Below are positions 3,060 through 64,000 of a stretch of DNA of 64,000 nucleotides, piece by piece; position 1 is the stretch's first letter; every line of letters starts with the position of its first letter. The stretch lies in assembly GCF_030684315.1 (NCBI RefSeq), contig NC_081371.1:27709440-27773439 (forward strand), written 5' to 3'. The notes below the pieces were generated by a model. The model made no database searches. It had not been told where the DNA came from and worked only from the letters and a program-made list of their open reading frames with translations. The translations under genes were made by a program, and so were the position numbers. This stretch comes from Stegostoma tigrinum (taxonomy: Eukaryota).

Positions 3060-3165
3060 ATGGCTACAGCCATACCAGAAGGATTTCATTATGAGACCAG
3101 ATATGTTGTTTTGAATTACTTGGGGCTGATTTCACAAGAAAAGACTCCAAAACAAACAGGGGAAG
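3060..3165 (+). CDS. BCL2L13: Bcl-2-like protein 13 (Bcl-rambo), coding exon 1
   Basis: Encodes MATAIPEGFHYETRYVVLNYLGLISQEKTPKQTGE, matching the BCL2L13 N-terminal GFHYETxYVVLxYLGL motif. Candidate acceptor ctag at 3021-3024; donor G|gtaat (phase 1). Confidence 0.95.
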
Positions 3166-3861
3166 GTAATTTCAGCACTGTAATACTTAAAGGTGATATA
3201 TATTTAAACCATTACTTTAACATCTTGTGTGGACTAAATTTGTATATCACTTTTTTAAAGAAAAGTTGGCTAAATGACATAGTTACAAGAGCAGTAGATC
3301 AGCATGCTACATCCTCAAATATGTTTGACAAGTTTTACGGTCTTTTGAATATTAAAAGTACAAAATTTTAATTGTTTGCTTTTGCACTTGAAACAGAGGT
3401 TAAATGCATTTACAAATAAAAGTAATTTTGGGCTCCATTTTGTTATCTTGATAATCTATCAAAATAGACTTTGGAAAATAAACTTCATGGGTTTTTGTTT
3501 TGTAGTCATGCAAAACTTGTCATTTCACTTCTGCATGGTTTGATTATGAATTCTGACAAGATGTCACAGGCTATCAGTATAAAGAGCAGTGCTTTGGAAA
3601 TGGAATTCTATCGCTAGATAGAAAATATTTCATGTTTTTACAAGCTTTTAACGTAATCTAACTGGACAGGAATGCTAAAACAATGACTTAAGTTGGAGGA
3701 ATTTCTGCAATTTTTAAAAAAACTCTTAAATGGCTTTATTAGGCTTTCAATATTCTTATCAATACAGTAATCAATAAATTCAGTTTTGGCGTAAAACTGA
3801 TTTGCTATGACTAGTGATCTGCTATGAATTTGCTGAAACAAAATGACCTTTTTTAAAACAG

Positions 3862-11852: not shown

Positions 11853-13421
11853 GTAAGCACAATTTCCTCAATGAACTGACAGTGAAGCAGAGTTTTAGTT
11901 CTAGTATCAATACTTTGGGGGAATTTGAAAGTTGCAGACTATGTAAATTGAAGCACTTGAATGAAGTAGATAAGGGTGGGGTGACATTGTCCAGTCAACT
12001 TTTCCCAGTTTCATGGGACAGTTAGGAATATATAAAGTGCTGGAAATGTGCTTTACAATTCTGTAGTCATTCAGAATTTCTCCTGTATTGATATCTGCTC
12101 TATTAGGCAACAGAACTGCACTATCAACAGCAATACGAACTTAAGATATATAAATGAAACATGAAAATGTTAGAAAATGGTATGAGTCAGAGTTACTGTG
12201 AATCTCTTTATGGTTTGTCTGTAAACTGATGAGGGTTCCTTGACAATGGAAATGTTGATTGCTATAAGAGTAAAATGGATTTTCATCAAACACCAGTATG
12301 CATAGTTTCTGGAACTGTAAATAATACTGTGGTGTAAGTTTATAGTGTTTTTTTTTGGATTCAAAAGTGGAAGAAAAATAGATTTTTATTCTTCACTTCT
12401 GTGAAGGTAACACTTCTAACAACTAAGGTCAGAAAGGTATTTTGAGCAGTGGACTGCATTTCCAATAAAGCAATGACTTGACCAGCTATTAAGATAGCTA
12501 ATTGTGAAATTTTTACAAAGTTGAATTTTTTTCAAACAAATTCAAGAGAAATAATTCAGTTGCCACTTGTGGTTGAGTTCAGAACAAAAGTCATCCTGGC
12601 AGAAGGACAGGTATTTTGAGTTTGTAGAGGTCTCCCAACTGAGAGTTCAGCTTATTGGACTGCTCAAACAGCTGAAATCTCCAATGAGAGACAGAAAACG
12701 TACTGGGGAAGATGTTAAGATGGGAGCTTCACTGTGACTTTTTTTAAAAAAAGTGGGCAAAGGGTTGAACCCGTTTTGCTGATTATTAACTTCTTAAATT
12801 GTCCCTGTATGTAAGAACTTCTATAAACTTTTTCAGAAAAATCCAATGTGATCTAACTTGTCTAGTATTATCATCAGCTGCAATTTTTATAATTTTTACT
12901 CAGCAGACATCTACGTATGAGAAATGAATATAGTGCAAGTAATGGAATCACACTGTGTACATAGTTGGAGATCAGAGCTGACTCTTTTGTCGTGCTGTAA
13001 TGTGGACTAGTTGTATGAATTTGATTGAAACCATACCACAAGTTTGATGCAGGAAATTAATGCTGGAGGCTTGCATATTACATTTTGTATTAGGAGGTGG
13101 AAAACAACTTTGGTGACTTTGATCTTTCTTTTCTATTCTCCAAATACCTTGTGATTCTGTTGCAGTTGAGTTTTAGTCTTCTAAAGCACCCACCCAAACA
13201 GTCCATGAAGAAAAGAAAATGCATTTCCAGGTCTTATTTAATGATATTGTTTGGTTGACTCTCAAAGTTGAAGGCAAATCTTCAAATTGAGGAACAGGAA
13301 ATTTTAAAGACCATTTATTGTCTGTTGCTGCCTTAGTGTAACTGCAAGTGAAGAACGCAGGGTATCCAGTAAGCAGGAATGCAAGAGTCTGTTTTTGATT
13401 GTCCAACACATTGAAGATTCT

Positions 13422-13626
13422 AAATAAAAACCAAAAGAACTGCAGATGCTGTAAATCGGAAACAGAAAGTTGCTGGACAAACTGAGCAGGCCTGGCAGTA
13501 TCTCTAAAGGAAAACACACTTGACGTTTCGGGTCCAGTGAGGAAGGGTCACCGGACCCGAAATGTTAAGTCTGTTTTCCTTCATGGATGCTGCCAAACCT
13601 GCTCAGTTTGTCCAGCAACCTTCTGT
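13422..13626. mobile_element. Inverted-repeat Penelope-end insertion with 14-bp TSD
   Basis: The arms are reverse complements (gttgctggacaaactgagcagg / cctgctcagtttgtccagcaac). TSD acatt(g/a)aagattct at 13408-13421 and 13627-13640. Confidence 0.8.
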
Positions 13627-22768: not shown

Positions 22769-23608
22769 GGAACTGTTTTTAATCTGGACTCCGAAGAGGA
22801 AGAACAAGGAGAAACTGTAGATGACAGCAATGATATTTACATCTTAACAAGTGACAACTCTGGTCAAGTAAGTCCTCCTGAGCCACTAACTGTCACTAGT
22901 TCTTGGCAGGCAGCTGGCTTGCCAGCTTCACTGTCTACTAGCCAAAGCTGGCATACTGAAAGCTTGCCAGTTTCTCTTGGAACAGAGTCTTGGCAACAAT
23001 TATCCATAGACCCAGAGGACATGAAAAGCTTGGACAGTAATGGTGGTGGTGAAGAGAGAAGTGAAAACAACTCTTCTAATTCTGATATTGTCCATGTAGA
23101 AAAAGAGGAGCTTCCTGAAGCAGTCGAGAGTCAGGAGGCAGAATTAAAAACTCAAGTTTCTGCAGCAGCAATTAAATCAGCACCTCTACTCTTGCAACAG
23201 ACTGCACAAGCGGAGGTTGAACTCCCTGCTGAAGTAGGGAAAGCTGATCCTTTATTAGTATCAAGTCCAATAGCAACCTCTGAAGTAGAGGAAAAAACTG
23301 TAACACTGGCCAGAGAACAGGCTGTTGAATCCAGCAAACCACATCCATCAACTTCACTGCAAGAAATAAGAAAGCAATTGGAAGAGATTAAAAAAGGAAT
23401 CTGGGAAGATGAAATAGAAACCAAACCAGAAGATGATGTAAGAAAGGGTGAAAAAGTTGAAATAACACCACTGCCTACATCAGAGGATGGTGAAGAAACT
23501 GTTCCTGCAAAATCAAATGCATCTCTTTTGATTTATGGTGGAGCTGCTGCTTTTGCAATGCTAGCTGTGGCAGTAGGGGTGGTGCTAGCCTGGAGAAGAA
23601 GATTTTAA
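22769..23608 (+). CDS. BCL2L13: BCL2L13 last coding exon (BHNo region with LIR motif, C-terminal transmembrane anchor)
   Basis: ttcttag|GGA, 840 nt open to TAA. Encodes GTVFNLDSEEEEQGETVDDSNDIYILTSDNSGQVSPPE...SWHTESLPVSLGTESWQQL...NNSSNSDIVHVEKEE...YGGAAAFAMLAVAVGVVLAWRRRF. Summed CDS is 1413 nt = 470 aa. Confidence 0.97.
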   Translation, partial: GTVFNLDSEEEEQGETVDDSNDIYILTSDNSGQVSPPEPLTVTSSWQAAGLPASLSTSQSWHTESLPVSLGTESWQQLSIDPEDMKSLDSNGGGEERSENNSSNSDIVHVEKEELPEAVESQEAELKTQVSAAAIKSAPLLLQQTAQAEVELPAEVGKADPLLVSSPIATSEVEEKTVTLAREQAVESSKPHPSTSLQEIRKQLEEIKKGIWEDEIETKPEDDVRKGEKVEITPLPTSEDGEETVPAKSNASLLIYGGAAAFAMLAVAVGVVLAWRRRF

Positions 23609-28060: not shown

Positions 28061-28649
28061 CATCAGCCTATTCAATTTCAATAGTTGGGTTTGGCTCCAT
28101 TTAATTTTTATATTCGTCTATCATCAGGATTATGCTATTTTTCTTGATGACATGAGAATCAATTGCTTTAAGCGCAAAACTGACAACACTGCTTCATCTA
28201 TTTCCCAGACTGATTCTAGCCCAGCTACATCCTAGCCACATACTTTATTAGTCTGACTTTGTGTAAGACATCTAAGAAGGACCAAACACTAGATTTTTAC
28301 ATAGTCTATGGGAAGGTCGTTGACTTGAAAAGTTAACTTTTTTTGCAAAGTTACTGCCAGACCTGCTGCATATTTCCCACATCATCTTTCATTTCAGATC
28401 TTCACCACTGACACAAATTTGCTTTTGTATTTAGTCCTTCCTCTCTCTTCCCCATAATAGCCCACATTTCATAATCAATTGGATCACTTGATGCCTTCTG
28501 GCCCATCTGGTTCTTCATCCTTTCATTATGTTGCATCATTATTTCAGTTTTTACTCAAAACAACTTCAGTAAGTTAAACAGTAATTAAAATTTTTTTTAC
28601 TATCAAAATCAATCCACAATGTATCACTAAATACATTAAAAAAACCTAC

Positions 28650-28871
28650 CCATCCTCCTATATTCTGAATATAATTTTGGAGCGTATTACTAATGTACTG
28701 GACAGTGGTTTTGAAGATGCGTGGAAGCAATAGCGGTTTCTCTACTACAGTTTTTTTGAACAGCATCATTGCCAGCAATAGGAAGACTTTCTCCTGGGGC
28801 ATATCTCGAGTAACATCATTTTGTTGAGTAGTCAAATGGGCAATCATGGCGGACATAATTCTGGTTCCATC
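28650..28871 (-). CDS. BID: BID coding exon 3 (C-terminal helices, ends GGW)
   Basis: tatcag|GAT...GGA GGA TGG|gtaggt, 222 nt. Encodes DGTRIMSAMIAHLTTQQNDVTRDMPQEKVFLLLAMMLFKKTVVEKPLLLPRIFKTTVQYISNTLQNYIQNIGGW, which aligns to human [44 protein letters not shown]. Confidence 0.93.
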
Positions 28872-30314
28872 CTGATATATTAAAAAGAAAGATGAATGAT
28901 TATATTGACAAGATTTACATCCAGTTATTAGGTAATAATTTTATGTGTACAATTTATACAAGCATATGCAAACAAATACATGTTACTATAATGGAAATAA
29001 GTCACAATAAAATCACTCACTTTCTCCTAGCCTTATAGGTTGATCTTAAGCATGAATCAAACCAAAACAAGGAAGTTGTTTGTGTTATTCAAGCTCAGTT
29101 TCTTCAAGCTGTTTCCTTTCTTATTTTGTCATTAACTCTTTATAATTAGAATGGAAGATGCCAATTCAGTGAGCAACTTGAGGAAATTACTTTCTGTATC
29201 AGCATTTATAACTCTAATCTTATTGGATTTTGTAGCAGACAATTCCAGGAAAACATATATATCCCAGCTTCAGAAAGTGAAAAGCTAAAAGTTTTCTAAT
29301 GCTGATGGCTGCTTCGGTCCACTTTTCACATACTTTATTTTCCATTACCTACATTTTAACCACATGGGTATAAACAATGAGGGTGTCATAATTTGCTGCA
29401 CAAGTGGCTCTAATAAAGTCTATCATTAGCTAGACTTCACTTGGCTGTTTAATCTTCCCAATACTTTGAACCACAAGATGTTCTAAGTGTAGATTGACGA
29501 CAGTGCACAAAAGGAAGAAATCAATCACCATGACTGGAAATGAGCAGGGCAAGCAGCTGTCACATTAAAGATTGTGAAACAAAAGCACAGGGATTGAAAA
29601 GAAAGTATAAATATCAAATCAGGTACTGAAAGAACTTAAAAATGAGAAAACTGAGGAAAGAATACAAAGGAGAAGTACATGTATTAATTTTAAAATGAAT
29701 GAAACTCCAAACTTTGAATAGTTCATTTTTGGAGGCAGACAGAGTTCATTGAAGTAATTACCAATTAGCATATAATGAAAAGACAGTCAATAAAGGTTAA
29801 ATACTGGCTCCTCCAGTCACTTCAGACCAGCTTGAACTTTGTATGGCAAATTTAATTTTGTTACTGCCATGCAAATATGGCACCTTCGTGTCACTTCATG
29901 CATTTCAATGGTAAGTCAAAAAGTGGGATGCCATTTTTGATAAGCCAGTGGCAAAGCAGAACATGTCAAACAACTTATGAATTCCACATTTCATCACAAA
30001 TCTTTCCTCAATGAAGTTACTGTTAAGTTGCACATTGCAGTCTTCAGATACTAAATCACATCAGGAGAATTCCCTTTGTAGATGGAACTTCTGTAAGCAA
30101 TCAAGGAGAAAGACAGTGTTTTTCATTCTGAAATTCTACTTTGTCAAAATTAAACTGATGCCTTCATGTATTTAGATAAGTAGTGTCTCAGAGCTTTTTA
30201 ATTTAGGCACATATTAATTCCTTTGCAGCTGAACCATTTATGTTTTAACATTTCTACCACTGCTCCAAAGAAAAAAATTAAAGAAAGACTAATATTTCAC
30301 ACCATTGTTGCAAA

Positions 30315-31646
30315 TGTTATGGACCAGACTGGATGCCCTCAAAATATACTAGGAAGATTGCCTCAACCCCAACCTTTTCTTATTTTTAAAAGGCAACTGT
30401 AAGGTGTTGTTATCCAGATACAATTCAATGGGTCAAATTGGCTTGAAGAAATACACAATTTATTCTTACGCTATAGTTAAATTGCAGACAAAATAAGAAT
30501 TTTAAAAATGCTTTACTATAACTCTATCGAAATAAGTAGCAATTTAATCCGTTAACTACCACTGATTAGCTGTTCCAAGATAGTAACATCCCTTCAACAC
30601 ACTCTTGGCAGAGGCAATTTCAGTAAAATAGATAATCTCACATGCAGCATAGTGGGGTCAGTGTGGTTAGTGGAAAGTGTGAAGCAGACAAGGGAGTCAC
30701 AGACAGAGCGGTCCCTATGTCTGCTCCACGCTCCCCAGTAACCCCACTGACCCCACCACTCCTGGCACCTCTCCCTGCAACCTCAGGAAATGCAACTCCT
30801 GCCTCTACACCGACCCCCTCGACTCCATTCAAGGCAAAAAATAAACCTTCGCCATCAGACATGGGTTCACCTGCACAACCATCAACTTGGTCTGCATCCG
30901 CTGTTCTCGACGTGCCCTCCTCTATACAAGTGAGACCAAGTGGAGACTCGCAGACCATTTTGTAGAGCATTTGCGCTTTGTACATGACAAACACCACCAT
31001 CTTCCAGTCGCGAAACGTTTCCACTCCCACTCTCTGGGTGACATGTCCATCCTCTGCCTCCTCCAGTATCACTATGATGCCACCCTCAAACTGTAGGAGC
31101 AGCAGCTCATATTTCACCTCGGGAGCCTACAGCCCAATGGCCTAAACGTGAGTTTTACCAGTTTCTAAATTTGCCCTCCCTGGCCTCATCACATGATCAA
31201 CCCTCCCTCTCATCTCCACCTCCTTGACCTGATACAACCTGTCAACTTCTCCCCCCACCTAAACACTACCCCCCCACCTCCCTGACCAATCCCCATTACT
31301 CCCTGTCTGCACTCACCTATCACCATTCCACCTACCTTCCCCAGCCCCACCACTCCTCTGTATATTTATTTCGAAGCTCTCCTCCCCTCCCCATTTTGAA
31401 AGAAGAGTCCTGACCCAAAATGTCAACTTTCCTGTTCCTCAGATACTGCCTGGCCTGCTGTATTCCTCATTCTCTACACTGTGTTATCTCTGACTACAGC
31501 ATCTAAAGTTCTTGCTATCTCAAGACCTGTTTATCACAAGCTGTTTACGTTATTGGCTGGAAACAGAATGTTAAGGACCTCCGTCTCAACCTCTCTTCAT
31601 AAAACCAGGACAAAATACACTTCTTAAAAGCCATTGTATTGTCACA
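30315..31646 (-). mobile_element. Probable solo LTR with 4-bp TSD, interrupted by a Penelope-like element
   Basis: Begins TGTTA and ends TCACA, flanked by caaa/caaa (30311-30314, 31647-31650), with a minus-strand AATAAA near 30458. About 450 bp remain once the nested element is removed. Confidence 0.5.
30650..31522 (+). mobile_element. Penelope-like element 3' fragment (GIY-YIG endonuclease) with a short 5' inversion
   Basis: Encodes VCIRCSRRALLYTSETKWRLADHFVEHLRFV...LPVAKRF...EQQLIFHLGSLQP, followed by a C-rich 3' region and the same terminal sequence as the copy at 37571. Confidence 0.85.
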
Positions 31647-34545: not shown

Positions 34546-34692
34546 TTCGGGTCTGGTGACCCTTCCTCAGAACCTGGACCAGAAACATTAACTCTGTTTA
34601 CTCCTTCGCAGATGCTGCCAGACTTGCTGAGCTTTTCCAGCAACTTTGTTTTTGTTCCTGATTTACAGCATCCGCAGTTCTTTAGGTTTTTA
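34546..34692. mobile_element. Short Penelope-end insertion with partial inversion and 13-bp TSD
   Basis: taaaggttcactt at 34533-34545 and 34693-34705. The minus strand carries gttCTGAGGAAGGGTCACCAGACCCGAAA. Confidence 0.8.
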
Positions 34693-35055
34693 TAAAGGTT
34701 CACTTACCAACTTATTCCTGGGAAGAAGGATTAACTTTTGAGGGAAGATTAGACATGTTGGTCCTGTAACTATTCGAGTTTAGAAGAATAAGATCACATC
34801 TCATTACAGCAGATAAAATCCTGAGGGGACAGGAAGAGTAGATACAGAAAGTCTGTTTCCCTTTGTAGGTTAGAACTGTGGGGGCAGTGTAAAGGTAAGG
34901 GGTCTCTCATTTAAGACAAAGATGAGAAAAAAATATTTTCTCCTCAAAAGTCATGAGTACGTGGAATTCTTTTCTCCAGCGAGCAGTGACAGCAGTCATT
35001 AAATATTTTTAAGGCATAGGTAGTTAGATTCTTAACTAACAATGTTCAAAGAGTG

Positions 35056-35973
35056 GAGTTGTTAGTTGGCTCACCAAGCTGAGTGGTTTTCGTGCAAATG
35101 TTTCATCTCCCTTCTCGGTCACACTTTCAGCGCTGTGTAGCCTCCGCTGAAGCACTGTGCTTCTGTCCCGCTGTGAATTAAATCGTCCAGTCTCACATGG
35201 TCGGTAGCCCTGTTTCCAGTTTTGTACAGTAGTGGTATGTAGATGGGGTCTATTTCAACAGGTTTGTTTATCGCACCGATGGTTGGAAACCAGGCCTCCA
35301 GGAATTCCCGTGCATGTCCTAGTTTTTGCTTGTCCTAGTACTGTAATTTTGACCCAGTTAAACTGATGTCCTTCTATATCGGAGTGTATTGAAACAAGGG
35401 AGAGCATATAAAATACCACGCAGCAACTGCAAGAAACACTACATAGGACAGATGGGCAGGAAACTCACCACCAGGATACATGAACATGAACTCGCAGCAA
35501 AACAGCACGACCAACTCTCCCTTGTTTCAAAACACTTCGATACAGAAGGACTTCAGTTTCACTGGGGCAAAGTTACAGTACTAGGACAAGCAAAACAAAG
35601 CCAAGCACGAGGATTCCTGGTGACTTGGTTTTCAACTACCGGTGCAATAAACAAATGTGTTGAAACAGACCCCCATCTACACACCACTACGGTACAAAAC
35701 TGGAAACGAGACTGCCCACCATTACAGCAGGCAAGGCAGCACCAAAGGAAAAGGAAAGCTGACATTTTGGGTCAGGGCCCTTCTTCAGAAATGACCCATT
35801 TGACAGACATATAAATTCGGGGCAAAACAAAACAATGGCACGTCAGAGACTAGACAGCACTGAAGATGTCACCTAGAAGGGAGATGAAAAGTTAGCATGA
35901 AAACCAGTCAGCTCAGTTTTACCAACCAACAACTCCAACCACAACTCGAGCTACAGATCTTCGTTAAAACATT
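35056..35973. mobile_element. Second-family Penelope-like element (GIY-YIG) with long inverted duplication and 15-bp TSD
   Basis: The ORF remnant reads YKIPRSNCKKHYIGQMGRKLTTRIHEH. The segment 35056-35390 is the reverse complement of ~35520-35940. TSD aatgttcaaagagtg at 35041-35055 and 35974-35988. Confidence 0.88.
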
Positions 35974-37019
35974 AATGTTCAAAGAGTGCTGGAAAGTGGA
36001 CTTGATGCCATAATCAAATCAACCGTATCTCATCAATGGTAGAGCAGGATCAAGAGGGTGAATGGCATTCTCAGACTCCTAATTCAAATGTTTTTCACGA
36101 GCCTTCAAATTGGTTGAGAGGTGTTCAGCCTTGTGGCATTTTTTGGTGCTGCTTTAATATCTTACTGTTTGTTGGCAATCAAAAATAGATATAGCACTTG
36201 AGGTATGATGTCAGCACAATACCACACAAGTTGATCACAACTTCCTCTGACTTGTATTGTTTTGGCTATGTAGTTCAGTATTTTATTAGCTTTTCTGATT
36301 CTTGTTCTGTGCCGGCTGGATATGATTTGTGTACAGTTTACCTGTTTCTTTCCTCTTCACCTTTAGCTATTTAAAAAAAATACATTGTCACACATTTTCC
36401 TTTCTAGATGCATTACATTACATTTGTCTGATTGACCAAATATTGTTGAACTCGTTCTGTAATTTTTTACTTTCCTGCTCTGATATCATCCTTGGATGAT
36501 ATTATCTCCAAACTGATTAAACAACAGTTTCTGAATCACTTACTAATGTCAGTTAGAAGCAGCATCAGTCCTCTCAACATACTAAGTACAGTTCCTTCTC
36601 ATCACACATATTTGTCATTTTCCACCCTTCTGCAATTTCTTAGCCATTACCAAGTTTACCCTGAATTTCTTTGAGCCTTGCACTTAGCTAGTGGACTTTA
36701 ATCTGCGTCTTTATCAAATGTCTTTGGGAAATCTTGGTACACAATGTAAAAATAATTTAACATAGTCCATTTGGTTGTCACTTCCTCAAAAAACTGTGAT
36801 GTTTATTTGAGGAAGCCTTCTAAACCTGTGCTGGCTGATTTACTGGGTTGCTCAAGTAAGCTCCTAATACCATTATGCAACCTTCTGAACCATCATTCTT
36901 TCTAAAGAAGAGAATTACATTAACTTATTGGGACCCTGTGACTACTGACTCTCTCAATATCAATGTTTCATAAATCACTTCTCATATTATTTCAAGTCTC
37001 TATGAAAAATATGTGAATG

Positions 37020-37570: not shown

Positions 37571-38505
37571 TGATATCACAGATATCAAAGTGTGGAGCTG
37601 GATGAACACAGCAGGCCAAGCAGCTTCTCAGGAGCACAAAAGTTGACGTTTCGGGCCCAGACCCTTCATCAGAAAAGGGGGATAGGGAGAGGATTCTGAA
37701 ATAAATAGGGAGACAGGGGGAGGCGGACTGAAGATGGATAGAGGAGAAGATAGGTGGAGAGGAGAGTATGGGTGGGGAGGGCGGACAGGTCATGGGGCGG
37801 GATGAGGTTAGTAGGTAGGAAATGGAGGTGCGGCTTGAGGTGGGAGGAGGGGATGGGTGATAGGAAGAACAGGTTAGGGAGGTGGGATGAGCTGGGCTGG
37901 TTTTGGGATGCAATGGGGGGAGGGGAGATTTTGAAGCCGGTGAAATCCACATTGTTACCATTGGGCTGCAGGGTTCCCAAGTGGAATATGAGTTGTTGTT
38001 CCTGCAACCTCCGACACTTCCGCCATCTGCAATCCGACCCCACCACCAAAGACATTTTTCCGACCCCACCCTTGTCTGCCTTCCAGAGAGACCACTCTCT
38101 CGTGACTCCCTTGTCCGCTCCACACTCCCATCCAACCCCACCACACCTGGCACTTTCCCCTGCAACCGCAGGAAGTGCTACACTTGCCCCCACACCTCCT
38201 CCCTCACCCCCATCATGACTTTCCACATCAAGCAGATGTTCACCTGCACATCTACCAATGTGGTATACTGCATCCGCTGTACAGGGTGGGGCTTCTTCTA
38301 CATTGGGGAAACCAAGCAGAGGCTTGGGGACCGCTTTGCAGAACACCTATGCTCGGTTCGCAGTAAACAACTGCACCTCCCAGTCGCGAACCATTTCAAC
38401 TCCCCCACCCATTCCTTAGATGACATGTCAATCCTGGGCCTCCTGCAGTGCCATAATGATGCCACCCATAGGTTGCAGGAACAGTAACTTATATTCCAAT
38501 TACGA
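37571..38505. mobile_element. Penelope-like element with internal inversion (3' end on -, GIY-YIG fragment on +)
   Basis: The + ORF reads TFPCNRRKCYTC...NVVYCIRCTGWGFFYIGETKQRLGDRFAEH. The minus strand at 37571-38010 gives the continuation LQEQQLIFHLGTLQPNG plus the 3' terminus. Confidence 0.9.
37645..37672 (-). ncRNA. Minimal hammerhead-ribozyme-like core in the Penelope 3' terminus
   Basis: The minus strand reads CUGAUGA-A-GGG(UCUGGG)CCC-GAAA-C-GUC. Both conserved hammerhead boxes, stem II and an NUH triplet are present; stems I and III are vestigial. Confidence 0.6.
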
Positions 38506-38507
38506 AC

Positions 38508-40679: not shown

Positions 40680-41030
40680 TTGTTATCACATAGCCTGCCA
40701 TTACACACCCTCTGCTGTTAATCACTAACAGTCCCCATTATCAACCATTCACCCTCCCAGCCTGATCGTTAGCAACTCCTTTGTCTGTCCAACTGTCTTT
40801 CTCTATCTTTGGGCTCTATTCTACCGTTTACCCCCTACCCCACCCACCTCCCTATTTTCTGCATATAAACTGACGTTTTCCCAGCCACCATCAGTTCTGA
40901 GGAAGGGTCATCAGACTCGGAGTGTTAACTCTTTTCCCCTCCACAGATGCTGCCAGACCTGCTAAGCTTTTCCAGCAGCTTTGTTTTTGTTCCTGATTTA
41001 TAACATCTGCAGTTCTTTTGGTTTTTATCC
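40680..41030 (+). mobile_element. Penelope-type 3' terminal fragment
   Basis: C-rich region followed by gttCTGAGGAAGGGTCATCAGACTCGGAGTGTTAAC (a decayed hammerhead core) and the cagatgctgccagacctgct terminal unit shared with 13422, 34546, 18430 and 53880. Confidence 0.7.
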
Positions 41031-41429: not shown

Positions 41430-44400
41430 GACAAAGACCTTAAGTGGTATTTCCGCAAATGATAATGGGGGAGTGTGAATTAGTAGATAGAGAAGGTGCC
41501 CAGATAGAGGAAAAAATGAAGCAAAGAGATTGCTGGGAGAGAGGTAAGTCCTAATCGGATGTGAACATTTGAAAATGGATTGGCTGGCTTGGGAACAACC
41601 CATCCAGAACGGGACCTGGGACATTGGAAACAAACATGGTGGAAGATGGAATTGTACTATAGAGCCCTCAATCGTCAGAGGGAAATTGAGAGGCAAACAT
41701 GTAGGAAGCTCTCAAATGTGTAAGTACAATAAGGTTGGAATAATTGGGCAACTATAGTGATCAAAGGTGGAAGGTGAAGAATTTGTCATACGTGTTCAAG
41801 AAAATTTTCTTTATTAATATGTGGATGCTCCTACTAGAAAAGGAGCAAAACTAGGCCTTCTTTTGGGCAATCAGGCAGGGCAGGTGACAGAACTAAAAGT
41901 GTGGGAACACTTTTGGTTTAGCGATCATAATTCTATTAGTTGCAAAATGGTTGTGGAAAAGAATAAGCCTTACATAAAAATTAGAATTTTTTTAATTGGA
42001 GTAAGGCAAATTTGAATGGTATGAAACAAAACCTTTCAAAAACTAATAGGAATAGACTGTTCGCAGGTAAAAGGATATCTGACATGTGGGAGACCTTCAA
42101 GAGTGTGATGATGAGAGTTCAGAGGCATTTTGTTCCTGTTACAGTGAAGGGTAGTGCTGATGAGATTAAGGAGTATTGGATGAATAAAGATATTGAGGTT
42201 CTAATCAAGAATGAAAGAGAATCATATTTTAGATGTAGACAACAGTCCTGTTGAAGGGTCTCAACCTTCGTTCCTCTGATACTGCCTGACCTGCTGTGTT
42301 TCTCCAGCTCCACACTGTATTGATTCTGACTTCTGGCATCCGCAATTGGTTCTATCTTCTTGGTTCAACTGAATCTCTGAATCAATATAAAGAGTGCAGG
42401 GGCATTCTTAAGAAAGAAATCAGGAAGGCAAAGAGAGGATATGAGATAACATTGACAGATAATTTTGAGGATAGTCCAAAGAGATTCTACAAATACATTA
42501 AGAGAAAGAGGGCAATTAGAGAGAGGGTAGGGGCCTCTTAAAGATCAAGGAGGTTGTCTTTGAGTTGAACTCCAGGGGGTGGGAGAGATACTAAATTAAT
42601 ATTTCATGTCAGTTTTTACCATGAAGAAACTGGTGACGTGCTAGCTCAGTGGCTACCACTGCTGCCTCACAGCACCAGGGACTTGGGTTCAATTCTCAGC
42701 CTTGGGTGACTGAGTTTCCTCCAGAGCTCTGGTTTCCTCCCACAGTCCAAAAATGTGCAGGTTAGTTGGATTGGGCATGCTAAATTGTCAAGGGTAGGAG
42801 GGTGAGTCTGGGTGGGATGTTCTTCAGCGAGTCAATGTGAACATGCCGTGCTGAATGGCCTGTTTCCACATTGTAGGGATTCTGTAAAAAAAAAATTCTA
42901 TTCCATAAATGGAGTCTAGAGAATGCAGAGAAATTAACTTTGATATTTTAAAATCAGTTCAGATTAGAAGAGGTAATTCGGGAGGTCTTGAGAGAATATA
43001 AAGTTGGATAAATCTGATGTATCTCAGAATGCTGTGTGAAGTAAGGGAGAAAATTATAAGATCCTTGCAGAAATACTTGCTTCATCTATAACTATGGGTG
43101 AGGTGTCTGATGGCTGGAGGGTGGATAATGTTAACCCTTTATTTAAGAAAGGTTATAAAGAGAAAATGGGGAAAATCCTGTGAGTCTGTCTTTGGTTGAG
43201 AGCAAATTGTTGGAGGCGATTCTAGAAGATTGGATTTATGGGCATTGAAAGAGGAAAAAATGGCTAAGGATAGTCAGCATGGTTTTGTGCGAGGAAAATA
43301 ATTTCTCATAAATTTGATTGAGTTATTTGAGGAAGTTACCAAAACGATTGATGGCAGAGCAGTAGAGATTGTTTATTTGGACTTTAGTAAAGCCTTCAAC
43401 AAGGTTCGACATATTAGACGAATTAGTAAAGTTAGGTCACGTGGGATTCAAGGTGATCTTGCCAATTGGATGCATAATTGGCTTAACAGCAGGAGACAGA
43501 GTGGTGGTGGTGGAGGTGATAATGGGAACTGCAGATGCTGGAGAATCCAAGATAACAAAGTGTGAAGCTGGATGAACACAGCAGGCCAAGCAGCATCTCA
43601 GGAGCACAAAAGCTGACGTTTCGGGCCTAGACCTTCATCAGAGGAGTGGTGGTGGAGGGTTGCTTTTCAGACTGAATTTGGTGTTCTGCAGAGATCAGTT
43701 CTGGGTTCTCTTTTGTTTGTCATGTATAAATGATTTGGATGTGAATATAGAAGGCATGGTTAATAAGTTTGTGGATGACTCCAAAGTTGGTAACATAATA
43801 GACAATGAAGAAAGTTTTCTAAGATTACAAAAGAATCTTGATCACATGGGTCAGCGGGCTTAAAATGGCAGATGGTGTTCAATCTGGATAAATGTAAGGT
43901 ATTGGTACAACAAACAAGGGTAGGGCTTATACAATTAATGGCAGGACCTTGGGTAGTATTGTAGAAGAGAAGGACCTAGACATTCAGATACATAATTCTT
44001 TGAAGTTTGCATCATATGTAGACAGGGTGGCTAAAAAGGTGTTTGGCACACTTACCTTCATTGCTCAGTCCTTTGAGTATAGGAGTTAGGAAGTCACGTT
44101 GAGGTTGTACAGAACATTGGTGAGGCCTCTTCTGGAATACTGTCTCCAGTTCTGATTGCCCAGTTACTAGAAGGATATTATTAAGCTGGAGAGGGTTCAG
44201 AAGACATTGACCAGGATGTTGCCAGGAATGGAGGGTTTGAGTGATAAGGAGAGGCTGGATAGGTTGGGACTTTTTTCACCAGAGTGTAGAAGATTGAGAG
44301 GTGACGCGATAGAATTTATAAAATAACAAGAGGTATAGATAGAATTAATGGTAGTTGTCTTTTCCCGAGCATGGAGGGATTTCAAGACAAGGGGACACAT

Positions 44401-45475: not shown

Positions 45476-47949
45476 TTCCTGCTCATTCTGCTAGTGTGCA
45501 GATTCCTTAAGTTTCAATGCTTTAATGACAATGAGCACTAACAGGTTCACCATCATTGTTACTACAAAACCTGGTCTACTTTTTTCTCTGATCGAATGAA
45601 ATCATCATTCACTAAAAGTAGCTGAGGGTGTGATTTAAATGAGAGTGCCTTCATGTGAAAACTAACAGCTTGAGATCTCTTATCTGCAGTCTGTGTGCTA
45701 CTACTGAACTCCACTGATCTGTACTTAAAATGAGGATAGGATCTAGCTTGGTTCCTATAAGCTCCAACTCGCATATAGGTGAGTAGGTTATAATTGTTAA
45801 GACTTGGGGATAAAGAACAGCCATTTTTGTAAAGTAGACAAGAGGGATAAGCAGCGCAATACTGTATTTAGCAGTAATTAGTATCTTTAGTGTACTGGTC
45901 TGTATAAAAAAAGAGAAAAAGCATTAAATCATTTAGAAGGCTGAGGTTAGTGATAACCAGAGGGTGAGCATGTGTTCCAATCTGTTTGTTGCAGCTAGTT
46001 GGGGAGGGGGGGCGGGGTCTTGTGGTAGTGGTAGTGTCCCAACCTCTGGGACAGAAGGTCACAATGTGATGGCACAACAGGTTGAGAAATAAAATCATTT
46101 GGCTCTTTGGGAGGCCATTCAGCCCACTGTGCTCAGACCAGCTTTTTGAAAGAACTATCTAATTAGTCCCATAATCTTACTTATTCCCCACAGCTATGAA
46201 AATGTTTGCAAGCGTATTACTGACTTCCTTGGAAAGTTGCTATTCAATCTGCTTCTACCATTCCTTTTGGTAAAATATTCTGGATCTTATCAATACACTG
46301 TGGAAAATCAATGTCTTCTGTGTCGCTTTTGCCATTTATCTTAAATCAATGTCATCTGGTCACAGGTCCCCACAGTCCCGACAGTGGAAATGCTTCTTAT
46401 TTACTCTATCGATATTATTTCTAATTTTAAAGAGCTCTTTTATATAACCCCATAATCTTCTCTGATTTGATGAAATGATTCCAAAATAGAATTAAATGAA
46501 TAGGATGCAATCATGTTTTCTTGTCAAAAAAAATTTTGGTACAATTTGTAAAACATGAAACCTTCACTAAATGTGTTTCTGCACACACAGTCTCTTCACC
46601 CTTTCACTTTTGGTATTGGGCTGCATGAAAAGGCTTTGTTCAGTACTTAGCTAAGAAGAAAAAAATTCCAGCAGTCTCTGGAGCAATTTATGTGACTTAA
46701 AGTTTGCAGAATAGCTTACAATATTGCTGCTCCTTTGTCTTTGGGAATTTTTGAGTGATTTTCCCCTAAATTTTTGGCATTTTTTTTATTAGTGGGGAAT
46801 TTAAAATAAATTTTCCCCACTTTCTCCTGTGATTTACATGTGCTGAGTTGAATCAATAGCCGTCTTACCTCTTATTTAAAGAATTTGCATACGTCCCATT
46901 GAGAATTTGAAGATGATCTGAATTAGGTTTCTGTATAGTCATAACGCTGTGGGCTGTTGTGTTAGAAACACTGTATTGTGGATGAAATGGTAGACCAGGA
47001 TCCTATCTGCATATCTGGGTAAGCTGGAGATTGCCTGAGGCACTTGAAGGAAGTTATGCACTTCCCATAATGTCTTGGTCAGCATTTATAACTCAACAAA
47101 TATTACTTATCATGTTGCTTTGTGTGGCATTTTGCTGCAGACTAACAAGAATACAAAAGGCATCCAGTAAAAGCTATAAATGAGGAAGAGGAAGAGAGAG
47201 AGAAAGTTGCTGAAATTACAATAACAGGGGAAACAGTGCTAGGCAGACTGGTGGAGCTGTAGGCTGACATGTCCTGGGTCCCAATGGGTGTCACCTAATG
47301 GTCTTAAAAGAGGTGACTAATTAGGTATTACATGCATTAGAATTGGTTTCCCAAAATTTTTAGATTCTCAAAAGGTTCCATCAGATTGGGATGTGACAAG
47401 TATAACTACTGTATTTGAAAAGGGTGGTGGGGCTTAGAAAATAGGAAACTACAGGCCAGTTAACTTAACGTTTGTCTATAAAAAAAGGTCAGAATCAATC
47501 ATTAAAGAGGTTACGGCTGGGTAACCTGGGAAAACTGAAGGTAACTGGAAAGAGTCATCACGATTCTGTCACAGGGAAACATGTTGAACCAATTTATTGG
47601 AATTTTTTGAAGGGTAACATACGCTGTGGATAAAGAGGAAAGTATGGACACCCTATACTTGCATTTCCAGAAGACATTTGATAAGATATCACATCAAAGA
47701 TTATTGAAGAAATTAGAAACCAGTGGTGCAAGGGGTAACATATTAGGTGTTGGTTGTCTTGCAGAAACGAAATTATGCATAAATAGATCTTTGATTGAAA
47801 TGTGTGATGAATGGAGTTGCAGAGGGTGTGTGCTGAGACCTCACGCTTTTACAATTTACACCAAAAACTTAGACGAGGGGAGCAAAGTCACAGATGACAT
47901 AAACATACGTAGGAAACTAGGTTGTGAAGAAGACACAAGTTCCAGATAG

Positions 47950-48139
47950 CAGGCCAAGCAGCATCTCAGGAGCACAAAAGCTGACGTTTCGGGCCTAGAC
48001 CCTTCATCAGTCTGATGAAGGGTCTAGGCCCGAAACATCAGCTTTTGTGCTCCTGAGATGCTGCTGGGCCTGCTGTGTTCATCCAGCTCCACACTTTGTT
48101 ATCTTGGATTCTCCAGCATCTGCAGTTCCCATTATCACT
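47950..48139. mobile_element. Palindromic Penelope-end insertion (two hammerhead-like cores back to back) with 13-bp TSD
   Basis: Near-perfect ~60-bp arms around a 1-nt spacer at 48011. TSD aagttccagatag at 47937-47949 and 48140-48152. Confidence 0.88.
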
Positions 48140-49434
48140 AAGTTCCAGATAGGTTGAGTGAGTTAGCAGAAATTCAATTTGGGCAACATGAAGTTGTTCA
48201 CTTTGGCAGGAAGAATAAAAATATCTGAGCTTTTATTCAATGGACAGTGACTGCAAAATTCCAAAAAGTAGAAGGACTTACATGTTCTAGTACAACACAT
48301 AATCTGAAAGGTTAATTGGATGCTATCTTTTATGGGAAGAGTAGTTGAACAGCCCTTCTTGAATATATAAAAAGGAAGAGAGAAGTCAAAGTGAATATAG
48401 GCCACTTACAAAATGACGAGGATGAAATGTTAAAGGGGAACTAGGAATTGGCAGAGGGGTTGAATAAATGCTTTGCATAAGTCTTGCCAGTAGAGGGCAC
48501 TAACAGCATTACAAAACTACAAAATAATCAAGGGGCAAAGGGAGGAGTGAAAATAAATATGCTAACTGTCTCTACGGAGAAAGTGCTCAGGAAACCCAAC
48601 ATAACTAAAGAAGTCGAGAGGATTTTAAACTGATCTGGGGCATAGGCCCATGTCTGGGAAGTTGGGGTGATTCAAAGAGTGTGGAAATGCATAGATTAAC
48701 GTGAGAATGATAGACAATGGCTGGAAGAGACAGAGAATGCACGTCTGAGAGCAAATCAGCAGATACAACTAGAAGTTACAAAAATAATAAAGGACAAAAA
48801 ACTTAAGGCACTGTATTTACATGTATGTAGCAGTCATACAAAACAGATGGACTAGAAGCACAAATTGAGATAAATAAGTTCAATATGGTGGCTATAACTA
48901 GTGAATATAATAACACAATGTCCCCACCTCTGACCCAGGAGGCCTAGGTTCAAGCTTTGCTTGCTTTCTTAATGGGTTAATTAGAAAATATCTATAACTG
49001 AGACATGGCTGCAGGATGACCTAGATTGGGACCTAACTATTGAATGGAATGTAATATTTAGGAAGGGCAGGAAAGGATGGAAGAGTGACCCTGTTCCTTA
49101 AAATTGAATCTGGCACAATACAGAGTGCTGATCTAAATTCAGGAAACCAGGATATAGAAGCAGTCTGGGCAGCCAGAAGGAATGATATAGGCAAAAGGTC
49201 ATGTGTGCGAGTTGTGTATAGGTCCTCTAACAGTAACCACATTGTAGGACAAGGTATCAAGGAAGGGATAGTGCAAGCTGGTCATAATGATACAGCAATT
49301 GGGTATTTTAACCTACACACAGACTGGAAAAATCAAATGGGAAAATGTTGTCAAGATGAGAAATTTATTGAATATTTTCAGGACAATTTCTTTGAAGCAT
49401 GCGCTTGCACCAACAAAGAATATGCTATACTAGA

Positions 49435-49697
49435 TAATAAAATGTGAGGCTGGATGAACACAGCAGGCCCAGCAGCATCTCAGGAGCACAAATTGAGATA
49501 AATAAGTTCAATATGGAGGCTAGAACTAGTGAATATAATAACACAATGTCCCCACCTCTGACCCAGGAGGCCTAGGTTCAAGCTTTGCTTGCTTTCTTTT
49601 GTGCTCCTGAGATGCTGCTGGGCCTGCTGTGTTCATCCAGCCTCACACTTTATTATCTTGATTCTCCAGCATCTGCAGTTCCCATTATCACTCACAC
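49435..49697. mobile_element. Inverted Penelope-end insertion with 15-bp TSD and a captured 114-bp local segment
   Basis: TSD atatgctatactaga at 49420-49434 and 49698-49712. The centre (49485-49598) duplicates 48857-48970. Confidence 0.85.
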
Positions 49698-51104
49698 ATA
49701 TGCTATACTAGACCTGTTTTGGACCAACAAGATAGGATTAATTGCTGATCTCATAGTAAAAACACCCCTGGGTAGCAGTGACCATAACATGATTGAATTT
49801 TACATACAATTTACGAGAGAGAAATGTGGGTCCAAGACCACAATTTTGAAAGGGCATAAAAGCAGAGCTAGTGAAAGTAAGCTGGCAATTTAGGTGAAAG
49901 TACAGGTCAATAGAAATATAGGTCAATAGAGATGCAATGACAAACATTTAGCGGGGGTATTCTTAAAAAAACACAATAGACACATTCCAACAAATAAGAA
50001 CAATTCTGAGGGATGGACTTGCCATCAGTAGTTAACTACAAAAGTCAAAGGTAGTATCAAACTCAAAGGAAAAACATATAAAGATAGGTGGCAAGTCAAA
50101 ACATTGGGCATGTATATTAAATTCCAAAAAATTATTAAAAGATTAGGCAGGAGGGAAAATTAGAACTGAAGAGGAAATTTGCCAAAAATATGAAAACAGG
50201 AAAAGCTTTTAAAGATGTTTACAAAAGAAAATTATTAACAAAATAAGCAACAAAAACAGAGATTGCTGGAAAACGTCAGCAGGTCTAGCAGCAAATGTGG
50301 AGAGAAATTGGAGTTAACACATTGGATCCTACCCTTTCAAGTCCTCTAAGAATCCTTAATTTTAAAAAAACCCAAAGGAACTTTGAGATAACAAGGTGTG
50401 GAGCTGGATGAACACAGCAGGCCAAGCAGCATCTTAGGAGCAGGAAAGCTGACAGCTCCTTTGGGTTTTTTTTAAACAAAATAAATGTTGTTCTTATAAA
50501 TAATGAGTCTGGGAATTAGTAATGGAAAGTAGAGAAATGACATGAATTGAACAGATATTTTGCATCAGTTGGAGCCATTAAATGCATGGCATTAAAATTG
50601 ATGTCGGTGGAATGTCTTACAGTTCATGAGGCACTAGCACTATAAATAATTGAGTCTTTTTCAGGCTGGTAGGGTGTCATGTGTGGGCCATAGGGGTTGC
50701 TGCTGGGGCCTCAATGCTTTACAATTTATATAAATGATTTGCATCAAGGAACATGGCAGCTAAATTTACTAATGACCCAAAGATAGGTAGGAAAGTGAGT
50801 TGTAAAAAGGACATAAGAATCGCACAAATAGGATAACAAAATAATTTAAGTGAGTGGGCGAATATCTGACAAATGGTGTACAATTGGCAGAAAGAATAAC
50901 AAAATGCACATTATCTAAATGATAAGAGCTGTGGGATGTAGAGAGATCCGGGTGTCCTAGTGCATGAATTTCAGAAGGTTAGTTTGCAAGTACAGCACGT
51001 TATCAGGAAAGCTAATAGAATGCAATGGTTTTTTGCAAGGGGAATTGAATGCAAGAGCAGGGAAGTTATGCTTCAGTTATACAAGTCAGTGGTGAAACTG
51101 CAGT

Positions 51105-61552: not shown

Positions 61553-61781
61553 TCAAAGATAATGGGAACTGCAGATGCTGGAGAATCCAATATATCAAAG
61601 TGTGAAGCTGGATAAACACAGCAGGCCAAGCAGCATCTCAGGAGCACAAAAGCTGATGTTTCGGGCCTAGATCCTTCATCAGAGAGGGTCTGATGAAGGG
61701 TCTAGGCCCGAAACGTCAGCTTTTGTGCTCCTGAGATGCTGCATGGCCTGCTGTGTTCATCCAGCTTCACACTTTGTTCTC
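61553..61781. mobile_element. Palindromic Penelope-end insertion with 15-bp TSD
   Basis: Inverted arms of ~88 bp around a short spacer at ~61684-61688. TSD tagaatattatgtga at 61538-61552 and 61782-61796. Confidence 0.88.
61690..61717 (+). ncRNA. Minimal hammerhead-ribozyme-like core (intact copy)
   Basis: CUGAUGA-A-GGG(UCUAGG)CCC-GAAA-C-GUC read directly from the sequence. Confidence 0.6.
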
Positions 61782-63109
61782 TAGAATATTATGTGACCTG
61801 ACTGAAAAGGTTCAAGAATGAATTGTGGTCAAAGTTAGTAGCGATCATCTTGGAGGTGACACGTATTCAAGAACATTGAAGAAAAGAAGAGAATATGTGG
61901 TGGGATTTTGGGGTTTTGTAAAGGACAGTGATGATAGCAGATCTGAAGGAGACATCACTGGAGATAAGATGACCAACACAGTAAAAAAATGCAAGTTGAG
62001 GACTGGGACAGAGCATAAGCTTAAGAAAAAGGTGGCCCAATGTGCTGGAGGAAGGGAAGGAGGTAGTTGCTATTTGGATGATCACAATCTTAGTAACATA
62101 GAAGTTCACAAGTAGCCCAATGGTCTTGTTGTGTGTGAGGAGGCAGATGGGGTTTCTGAGAGATTTTCTTTTTACCCAGGTGTTACCCTTGTACTCCAGA
62201 ATTCTCTCAAAAGAATGAACAATTTTGACAACAGAGAAAAAGACATGATAATTTCCCTCAAACGCCATTTTCTCCATCTTCAACAACACCATTCTTTACC
62301 TTGTCAAGAACAAGCTTCCCAATGGTGTGGACATTGTATGCAGGATGAATGGAAAACCTTTTAACCTCCACTGGTTTAAATTCAAGAACAGAAGCATAAG
62401 TAAAGGATTAGAACAATTGTTTCAGAAAGTGTTATTAGGATACGAAATGTATTGACTTTTAAGGGAAATTAGATCAAGACAAATTTATTAGAAGTTATGA
62501 GGAAGAAAGCAGAACAATTACGTTTTACAGGACAGATGGCTACCGGTGTTATAAGTGGTAAGGTACACTCTATGGACTAAACCAGAACCAGTGCTTGTCA
62601 TTCTGACATTCTATAATGTAAAAGAGTTTGCTTCTGTTTTGTAGCACTGTCAACTAAACTCAATAATAATTCCTATATTTCAATGATACATGATTCCCCT
62701 TTGGTTAAAATCATTGTGGATAGTGGGGAAAGTAGTTAATCACTCAATTACTGCATAAACACTATACAGAATATGTTTTAATAATTAATTACACTTAATA
62801 GTAAATGTTGCTGGTATGTAAAATCATATTTCCAATGTGTGCATGGAAATGTAACAAAAAAGGGCACCCATTCGTAATTTTTCGTTTACTATTTGGAATG
62901 TTGGCGGCTGGCTTCTCCACTGTTCAGCAGGGACTGAATACACTACTCCTATATCTTGTGTTCCTGTGTTCATATCTTGGCCATGATGATGTACTTGAAA
63001 TGCCATAACATTCAAGGCTATGGGACTAGTGTATATTTAGCATAGTTTTGATAGAATGGTAGAAATTTAAGGGACTGAAGGGCCTCTTCGGTACTATATG
63101 ATTCTGTGG

Positions 63110-64000
63110 GACTTCAGTATGTGGACGCCAATGCCATCTCTGTTCCCTCAGAAGCCTTGCTTAACACTTTTGCAGAAGCATACTGAAGAATTGGTCTCAG
63201 CCTCAATCTCAAGAAGAATCCTTTACCAATCCATTCCAAGTTCTGTTCAATCCCTCCATTAAGATCATAGGACAAATCCTCTCAAATGTGGAACATTTCC
63301 CTTATCTAGGAAGCTACCTTTCGGCTAAATCTGACATCACTGCAGAGATTCAAAATCACATCCAATCTGCGACCATCAACTTTCAATGCTTAAGGATGTT
63401 GGTCTTCAACGATCATGATATGCATGCTGATACCAAGATCCTGGTGTCAGCTTCTGACTCTTTATGGCTCTGAAACTTGGACTCTGTATAGAAAATCCTG
63501 GAGAAGTTCTGAATAAGGGTCCCAACCCGAAATGTCAACTTTCCTGTTCCTCTAATGCTGCCTGACCTGCTGAGTTCCTCCAAATCCACACTGTGTTATC
63601 TCTGACTCCAGCAACTGCAGTTCTCATTATCTTCTGGAGATTTCATCAATGCTGTTTGAGATAGATCCTCCACATCAGCTGGAAAGACAAGCGTGCTAAC
63701 ATCAGCATCCTTGAAGCAGCCAGTAGCATCATGATCCAGGTCATGATCATCCAAAAACATCTCCCGCTGGGACAGGCCACATCCTTAGAATGTCTGGGTT
63801 CTGATTACCAAAGCAAATCTTCTTTGCCCAGCTCAAGGAAGGCAGTCAAATCAAAGGACAATGAAGGAAGCTTTTCAAAGACTCCCTGAGGCTTCCCTCA
63901 AGTAATGCAACATGGATGTCAATGCATTGGAGACCCTGGTTCAGAAGAAACAGACTTAGAGGAAACTCCTGTATGAAGAGACATGATTTCTTTGAGAACA
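63110..64000 (+). mobile_element. RTE-clade LINE (BovB-like) RT C-terminal fragment with a nested Penelope-end (~63505-63630)
   Basis: Encodes VEHFPYLGSYLS..DITAEIQNHIQSA...TKILV..LYGSETWT...RFHQCCLR.ILHISWKD...LPKQIFFAQL, typical of RTE ORF C-termini. The nested insert is flanked by ctggaga. Confidence 0.8.

Follow-up and report, generated by a model that had tools for sequence, protein, structure and literature searches.

Among the repeats in a 64,000-nt stretch of the genome of the shark Stegostoma tigrinum (contig NC_081371.1 of RefSeq assembly GCF_030684315.1, forward-strand positions 27,709,440 to 27,773,439; hereafter the window) is a palindrome at 47937-48152 that carries two hammerhead ribozyme motifs between short target-site duplications (TSDs). 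The family to which it belongs consists of minimal insertions of a shark Penelope-like element (PLE) in which the element's pseudo-long terminal repeat (pLTR) appears in inverted orientation, a kind of arrangement that is already known. The repeated unit, here called the arm, is with high confidence the 3' terminal repeat (pLTR plus an optional 35-nt tail) of a PLE of the Neptune/Nematis type. The 5' ends of the arms cluster at the start of the ribozyme core and not at the site of predicted cleavage. We consider it likely, if some way from settled, that the palindrome is a minimal Penelope-like insertion whose two hammerhead-bearing ends, head to head in a 13-bp TSD, were rebuilt at insertion.

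The arm as the end of a Penelope-like element

Positions within the arm are numbered from the C of CUGAUGA (position 1), which places the predicted cleavage site after position 28. The focal palindrome runs from a left TSD (47937-47949) through an inverted arm (positions 1-63) and a direct arm (0-128) to a right TSD (48140-48152). Its two matching stretches, 47948-48010 and 48012-48074, are 63 nt each, 97% complementary and spaced by 1 nt, and the TSD is a perfect 13 bp, where random pairs of boundaries reached 9 at most in 150 trials. The parts are as follows.

47937..47949, + strand: left TSD, 13 bp, its last 2 nt also matching the outer end of the inverted arm
47948..48010, - strand: inverted arm, pLTR positions 1-63, with intact core and GUC triplet; stem I 0 bp in the palindrome context
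48011..48104, + strand: direct arm, pLTR positions 0-93, with a CpG-type change in the core that breaks ACGU; stem I 1 bp
48105..48139, + strand: optional 35-nt tail, positions 94-128, on the focal direct arm only
48140..48152, + strand: right TSD, 13 bp

The palindrome, its 13-bp TSD and the two minimal-hammerhead motifs, all described in a first-pass annotation of the window, are real. The insertion lies in what we take to be the reading frame of a decayed CR1-like long interspersed nuclear element (LINE), and at least two of the insertions, including those at 47937 and 49420, fall within frames that we would label in this way. No obvious motif is common to the seven TSDs found in the window.

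The identity of the arm emerges from two longer copies. At 37.6 kb the arm adjoins a pyrimidine-rich untranslated region (UTR) and the C-terminus of a GIY-YIG endonuclease, and the layout is repeated at 31 kb.

37580..38507, - strand: longer copy, with an inverted GIY-YIG segment that includes the CX4CX2C linker, a sense GIY-YIG C-terminus, a pyrimidine-rich 3' UTR and an arm to position 93
30652..31520, + strand: second long copy, of the related subfamily C, with a short 5' inversion, GIY-YIG, UTR, decayed core, arm and tail

The GIY-YIG fragment is decayed, and its match to PF01541 (E 6e-4) falls just under the curated cut-off; tblastn searches with relatives gave E 1e-73 at 38.0-38.5 kb and E 1e-46 at 30.7-31.2 kb. 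Its best protein relatives come from whale shark (78% identity) and zebra shark (72%). The copies in the window are truncated and hold no reverse transcriptase (RT); the 78%-identical whale-shark protein, P0001, and relatives in ENA carry both RVT_1 and GIY-YIG domains. A CX4CX2C linker is present in the 37.9-38.5 kb frame and in the relatives, and a CX2-5CxxC linker ahead of the endonuclease is a Neptune/Nematis feature (PMC8557442; published work is cited here for those parts of each source that were accessible to us). The zebra-shark predicted protein continues from GIY-YIG through the UTR into the arm (12 of 14 amino acids). Genome-wide copies were sampled as Logan contigs from four public runs, two of which, X1 and X3, may have supplied the assembly and so are not independent of it; in all four the contigs cover UTR and arm alike at high summed depth and bridge the two (123,141 contigs in X1). 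With the long copies and the zebra-shark protein linking it to the UTR and GIY-YIG, and the contigs linking it to the UTR, the arm is the pLTR of this element.

The family has each of the expected parts, namely a pLTR with a hammerhead motif, an optional 30-40-bp tail, an inverted 5' copy and a TSD. An inverted pLTR with a one-sided tail and a TSD is the typical published PLE layout (PMC3846280, PMC8557442), and the form with an optional tail, as at 48105..48139, is the one described in PMC3846280. Searches of the literature on shark or palindromic mini-PLEs yielded no description of the shark family or of its core-start boundary; Repbase, subscription papers and supplements lay outside that search and may hold one.

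By BLAST and alignment the window contains 21 arms at 16 loci, which fall into three subfamilies, A, B, and C. Arm 5' ends were taken from the alignment, and those of decayed arms were set by eye, local alignment having ended too late for decayed B arms. TSDs were sought at 15 of the 16 loci, leaving out the nested arm at 35.7 kb, and TSDs of 13-17 bp were found at 6 of these 15, all five palindromes included. The first-pass statement that most copies have TSDs therefore holds for the five copies it named (focal, 61.7 kb, 13.5 kb, 34.6 kb and 43.6 kb, all with 13-17 bp) but not across the loci tested. The further copies referred to below are these.

61558..61782, - strand: palindrome of subfamily A with 0-93 in the inverted arm and -5 to 125 in the direct arm; TSD of 15-17 bp
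49432..49697, + strand: subfamily A palindrome without core, arms beginning at 33 and 31 with about 103 nt of host DNA between them, 15-bp TSD
43516..43643, - strand: subfamily A single arm, -1 to 128, 15-bp TSD with 1 mismatch
13419..13626, - strand: palindrome of subfamily B whose inverted arm starts at +2 and direct arm near +13; TSD of 14 bp with 1 mismatch
34546..34693, + strand: palindrome of subfamily B with a 27-nt stub of inverted arm that starts at -2 and a direct arm that starts near +14; TSD of 13 bp
40790..41028, + strand: arm of subfamily B behind a pyrimidine-rich UTR that is probably native (left end placed approximately); a stem I of 4 bp (AGUU/AACU) could form
63508..63632, + strand: subfamily C single arm with tail, from -1
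50386..50453, - strand: short arm, 26-93, with host DNA of about 25 nt repeated in inverted form on its flanks in place of a TSD

The flanks of the last of these stand apart, in that about 25 nt of target DNA is duplicated in inverted, not direct, orientation around the short arm (50360-50476).

The 5' boundary at the start of the core

Eleven of the 21 arms begin at -5 to +3 (two of them in decayed cores), three at +10 to +14 and four at +25 to +33, while three run far upstream. For spans of 60-100 nt, and with the interval chosen post hoc, the binomial probability of 11 such arms is 7e-5 to 5e-7; counted by locus, 9 of 16 have an end there (p 1.6e-4 to 2.5e-6), or 7 of 16 if the decayed pair is dropped (p 5.6e-3 to 2.6e-4). 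The first-pass annotation had placed the fold-back point at or near the core and called for breakpoints to be plotted against it. Indeed, in window arms and contigs alike the 5' ends cluster at the core start far beyond chance, and one arm of each copy named there ends within -5 to +2. Its picture of back-to-back cores is accurate for the focal copy; at 13.5 and 34.6 kb, however, the direct arm begins at about +13 and +14 and has no CUGANGA, and only the inverted arm ends at the core start.

Sampling beyond the window points the same way. Of the six loose-end places displayed out of 207 in X1 contigs, the two with long unrelated flanks, and the best supported of that kind, are at 0 (165 contigs) and -3 (197). 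Over the core the summed depth reaches 6.2-7.6 million, and at -26 to -55 it is 3.6-4.4 million; farther upstream it stays flat, at about 4 million in well-matching bins to about -310, and so describes a step and not a slope.

Measured from the predicted cleavage site, the boundary is about 28 nt upstream. The scissile bond lies within 17 of the 21 arms; of the other four, two begin 2-4 nt past it, one stops short of it and one carries a deletion across it. Given this distance and the number of arms that span the bond, cleavage does not delimit the arms. In the contigs, cleavage-defined 5' ends could not be counted by the loose-end analysis, which has only about 17 nt of the stretch 3' of the site.

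What sets the boundary is less certain. PLE promoters are internal to the pLTR (PMC2377424, PMC6765202), and for this reason a sharp stop common to three subfamilies would most simply reflect run-off at the 5' end of the RNA. That end would most likely be a transcription start just upstream of the core, a cause we favor by a little over even chance.

Several considerations weigh against a start at this point. It is deduced solely from the places where DNA copies stop, and no cap-derived extra G is evident at 5' junctions in the window or as the first loose letter in X1 contigs. Seven of the 21 arms start elsewhere (three at about +10 to +14, four at +25 to +33), in addition to the three that run far upstream. 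The loose-end peak in X1 has a resolution of about 10 nt, the reference copy differs from the population at -1 to -11, the places displayed are six of 207, and summed depth is not copy number. Finally, Penelope of D. virilis starts well upstream of its ribozyme, with a 75-bp intron that begins 46 bp past the start and ends at helix I (PMC2377424, PMC4209133), so that a start right at the core departs from the published pattern.

The main rival is a structure-induced stop, in which RT travels along a longer read-through RNA and halts where the ribozyme region is folded or bound by protein; element and by-product would be the same. This would retain a weaker form of the first-pass proposal, that RNA structure stops RT at the core start, and we consider it improbable, at perhaps one chance in a handful. 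The missing cap signature suits it, as does the finding that about half of the depth reads through, and the boundary falls at the 5' base of a predicted 30-nt hairpin (1-30, -11.3 kcal/mol) in three subfamilies with differing upstream sequence. An RT moving 3' to 5' would, however, reach that hairpin at position 30, not 1, and in native context the upstream CCCUU pairs with the 5' strand of stem II, which leaves the 1-30 hairpin a probability of about 0. A terminator-like release by the matching hairpin in the cDNA was considered and set aside, the cDNA from 30 to 1 folding at only -1.0 kcal/mol. Splicing was likewise rejected as a cause of the boundary: an AG at -3/-2 is present in subfamily B and absent from A, and the loose ends share no upstream exon (agreement 0.35).

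Probable priming from both target strands

The 3' ends of the arms lie mainly at 93 and, where the tail is present, at about 125-128. Four arms end exactly at 93, including two of the five inverted ones, and six carry the tail, which occurs on direct arms alone; two single-arm copies likewise terminate at 93. The outer ends of the inverted arms are at 93, 93, 63, about 80 and about 27. The contigs of X1 hold 2,681 loose ends at 93, a count that mixes true ends with tail-bearing copies, the reference having no tail, and that lends weak support; some loose ends in X1 and X3 were left uncounted.

Two priming events, one on each target strand, are the probable source of these structures. The RT-endonuclease of the element would cut the two target strands 13-15 nt apart, and RT would initiate internally, at 93 or about 128 or elsewhere by short microhomology, on mostly uncleaved RNA. 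A start in the 5'-most pLTR would bring it to the RNA 5' end after about 93-128 nt. A second cDNA, begun from the other target strand, would yield the inverted arm, and host repair would then join the two cDNA 3' ends, using 0-8 nt of microhomology and in some cases inserting a templated filler. The focal copy would be a dead product of this process, its cores unable to cleave. In vitro, PAc, the Poseidon element of Anolis carolinensis, works on uncleaved RNA, initiates RT at a pair of internal sites by which the tail is defined, and both cuts and extends the two strands (PMC11167929).

Both the junction and the arm lengths differ in all five palindromes, from which we infer that each was made anew and that no palindromic master was copied. 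In the palindrome at 49.5 kb a filler of about 103 nt was copied, with 2 mismatches, from a donor at 48865-48967, about 630 nt upstream, and set between the arms with microhomologies of 8 nt and 3 nt at the joints; it looks like templated end-joining. Inverted-arm outer ends share 2, 3 and 3 nt with the TSD in three subfamily A cases, and about 1 and 0 nt (by eye) in two subfamily B cases. Taken together, the arm ends, the unequal arms and the 49.5 kb filler fit two cDNAs made from both target strands and end-joined, which matches the PAc biochemistry.

The inverted arm could instead be the product of one cDNA that folded back or primed itself, or of an antisense RNA that did so, an origin that we think doubtful. 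Self-priming on an antisense template is a published proposal for palindromic junctions (PMC3846280), and the focal center is an almost perfect palindrome. The 49.5 kb arms also share private variants, with 1 difference in 61 nt, which fits one template as well as two. Priming at 93, though, predicts that inverted arms should stop there, as two of them exactly do, and fold-back does not predict it. At 13.5 and 34.6 kb positions 2-12 are present in the inverted arm and missing from the direct arm, so that the inverted arm was not copied from the finished direct one. The focal arms, moreover, differ at position 56, with both letters seen in other copies (a single case), and opposite-strand joints in the contigs amount to one listed, in a single contig.

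Two observations concern the long copies. Each has a 5' inversion inside the endonuclease region, and in the 37.6 kb copy (37580-38507, the other being 30652-31520) there is an overlap of about 40 nt, bearing several mismatches, between the inverted part and the direct one.

The hammerhead motif and comparison with known systems

A loose core pattern matches the window eight times where 0.94 are expected, six of the eight matches belonging to the family. A stricter minimal-hammerhead descriptor gave five hits (four in subfamily A and one, at 35860, in a different PLE) against a mean of 0.03 in 100 simulated windows. The core fits CUGANGA / GAAA / UH, with an extra nucleotide before stem II and G10.1-C11.1, and judged by sequence the motif is a Penelope-type minimal hammerhead. 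The first-pass reading of stem III as ACGU is correct in part: CG stands at 15.2-16.2 in three of the four subfamily A hits, but the focal right-hand core has CA there and reads GAAAC-A-UC, which breaks the palindrome. Its claim of covarying stem II does not survive, as two-sided changes in stems II and III were seen at none of seven pairs over the 21 arms (a small, decayed sample, in which 500 of 500 shuffles did as well or better) and the subfamilies differ by a one-sided U-G versus U-A plus one added pair. Variants at 3% or more within core positions 1-15 of the contigs are confined to N7, position 12 and a loop position, a weak sign of selection on source elements.

In its native context the stem I of subfamily A has 2 bp; in palindromes it has 0-1 bp, and in subfamily B at 40.9 kb 4 bp can be drawn by eye. 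Under nearest-neighbor energies, which include no tertiary contacts, stems I and II have a pair probability of about 0 in native read-through context and on both focal strands. Those strands fold into a long hairpin (-134 and -143 kcal/mol), so the focal cores are predicted to be locked in 63 bp of pairing and unable to cleave. In an RNA starting at position 1, stem II has a probability of 0.44, within an inactive hairpin that pairs CUGAUG with CGUCAG. This agrees with reports that minimal hammerheads cleave poorly (PMC4209133) and that the PAc ribozyme requires protein and is dispensable for insertion in vitro (PMC11167929).

Dimeric PLE hammerheads were described by Lunse et al. (via the review PMC6765202), and the first-pass annotation held that dimers are favored here. 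In subfamily A, stem II and its CUAG loop form a near-perfect 12-nt palindrome, and the predicted RNA-RNA duplex (-37.8 kcal/mol) is more stable than two monomers (-22.6). To that extent the calculation agrees; yet this lowest-energy homodimer, a stem-II duplex, is inactive, the stem-III-swapped form reaches -13.3 kcal/mol with stems II and III only, and cores on opposite strands cannot dimerize within one transcript. At long odds, the model would allow the first 30 nt of the RNA to be a dimerization signal more than scissors, keeping a pair of capped RNAs head to head within a dimeric RT-endonuclease.

The same evidence bears on whether the family is a distinct, non-autonomous retroelement that propagates as a palindrome and is cut, retrozyme-like, by its own dimeric hammerheads. 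The motif and the TSDs are real, and a template cleaved now and then would be compatible with the two 49.5 kb arms, whose starts lie 2-4 nt 3' of the predicted cleavage site. The idea, a strong form of the first-pass proposal, is nonetheless largely refuted and now very improbable: the arm forms the 3' terminus of a longer RT/GIY-YIG element, no two palindromes have the same junction, and the boundary lies 28 nt from a cleavage site that 17 of 21 arms span. The cores themselves sit on opposite strands, locked in hairpins of -134 and -143 kcal/mol, with a stem I of 0-2 bp and no two-sided covariation, and the stem-II duplex dimer, at -32 to -38, is far more stable than a forced dimer of the active type (-13.3, with pairing in stems II and III only). 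A miniature inverted-repeat transposable element (MITE), other DNA transposon or microRNA hairpin has next to no chance of being correct. In its favor are the hairpin shape and a weak mir-4529 match in Rfam, which at 35.7 bits falls far short of the gathering cut-off (88). Against it, the two arms are not equal, PLEs account for the tail and for a TSD of this length, and the arm runs on into a GIY-YIG open reading frame (ORF), a link to an RT/GIY-YIG element that refutes this reading.

Rfam gave no hammerhead match at E<=1 and two microRNA matches far below cut-off, and the core pattern had no match in the metagenome and viral contigs scanned. A looser pattern found 13 and 11 loci there, each matching over only 21-34 nt around the pattern, and these were taken as chance.

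Copies in the window are single or head-to-head, never head-to-tail; a minority head-to-tail joint occurs elsewhere in the genome contigs. It is recurrent, returns from position 38 of the arm to position 0 across 2 intervening letters (mapped to 37628-37775), and has a depth of 151 in X1 and 304 in X3, single contigs in X1 having roughly 10. As read from the contigs, the joint implies a 41-nt tandem unit of the core, in which the upstream letters would give the second core a stem I of 3-4 bp; this could be a very small retrozyme-like dimer.

The window also holds a second, different PLE and traces of a host gene.

35041-35988: PLE with inverted layout, 15-bp TSD and its own hammerhead motif at 35860
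35724-35795: subfamily C arm nested within that PLE

The second PLE has GIY-YIG with no CxC linker in view and is probably of Penelope/Poseidon type. Decayed LINE-like and GIY-YIG fragments surround exon-like stretches, among them what we take to be exons of a BCL2L13-like gene at about 2990-3170, 22769-23608 and 28566-28940. The stretch at 28.6-28.9 kb has a Pfam BID/Bcl-2 match and lies on the strand opposite the other BCL2L13-like exons; it may belong to a neighboring BID-like gene.

Among known systems, the closest are the inverted-pLTR insertions of Pen2a_Av from Adineta vaga and other endonuclease-containing (EN+) PLEs (PMC3846280, PMC8557442). These have the same inverted, 5'-truncated pLTR beside a direct one, a 30-40-bp tail at one end, a TSD, a palindromic inverted junction and host DNA caught between pLTRs. 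The shark copies differ in being 150-270 bp long with no ORF, in having TSDs of 13-17 and not 8-10 bp, and in junctions concentrated at the start of the ribozyme core. The minimal hammerheads of metazoan PLEs (PMC4209133) share CUGANGA, the extra nucleotide before stem II, G10.1-C11.1, a palindromic 15.2-16.2 and the absence of loop 3. Stem II is 4-5 bp in the shark and stem I 2 bp in subfamily A, compared with 4-5 bp in S. mansoni and 2 bp in D. virilis. That study reports paired motifs on opposite strands, separated by 100-700 bp, and describes most copies as single and truncated; sharks are not named among the hosts in its accessible text, supplements lying outside that scope.

PAc resembles what is proposed for the shark in its two internal RT starts defining the tail, in the extension of both strands, in products that run to the template 5' end and in not needing ribozyme cleavage. 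It belongs to a different clade, without the CxC linker, and its ORF starts at stem II (PMC11167929); palindromic mini-copies are not treated in the accessible text of that study. The non-LTR (long terminal repeat) retrozymes of animals are, like the shark stubs, non-coding, PLE-related and equipped with a type I hammerhead (PMC7229834, 10.64898/2026.07.22.740005), but they form head-to-tail tandems with a ribozyme per unit, whereas the stubs are one-off, head-to-head insertions. Twin priming in LINE-1 is alike in that the second target end primes on the RNA to give a 5' inversion (10.1101/2024.12.14.628481); LINE-1 inversions, in contrast, copy adjacent, largely non-overlapping parts of the RNA, and the shark arms copy the same stretch.

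Both the PLE integration cycle and the role of its hammerhead are stated to be unresolved in the published accounts (PMC8557442, PMC11167929). The shark family is not a new system, and its value lies in the great number of small insertion products with precise bounds that it supplies. The 5' ends, two 3' ends and junction fillers of these products allow tests of an RNA start at the ribozyme, of two-strand priming and of the frequency of cleaved RNA. Palindromes of this kind also risk being misannotated as MITEs or microRNAs. Should the start of the RNA indeed act as a dimerization signal, both target strands would be extended at once, with the cDNAs meeting at the core, and the stubs would constitute a base-resolution fossil record of the transcription start, the RT start sites and rare cleavage in vivo.

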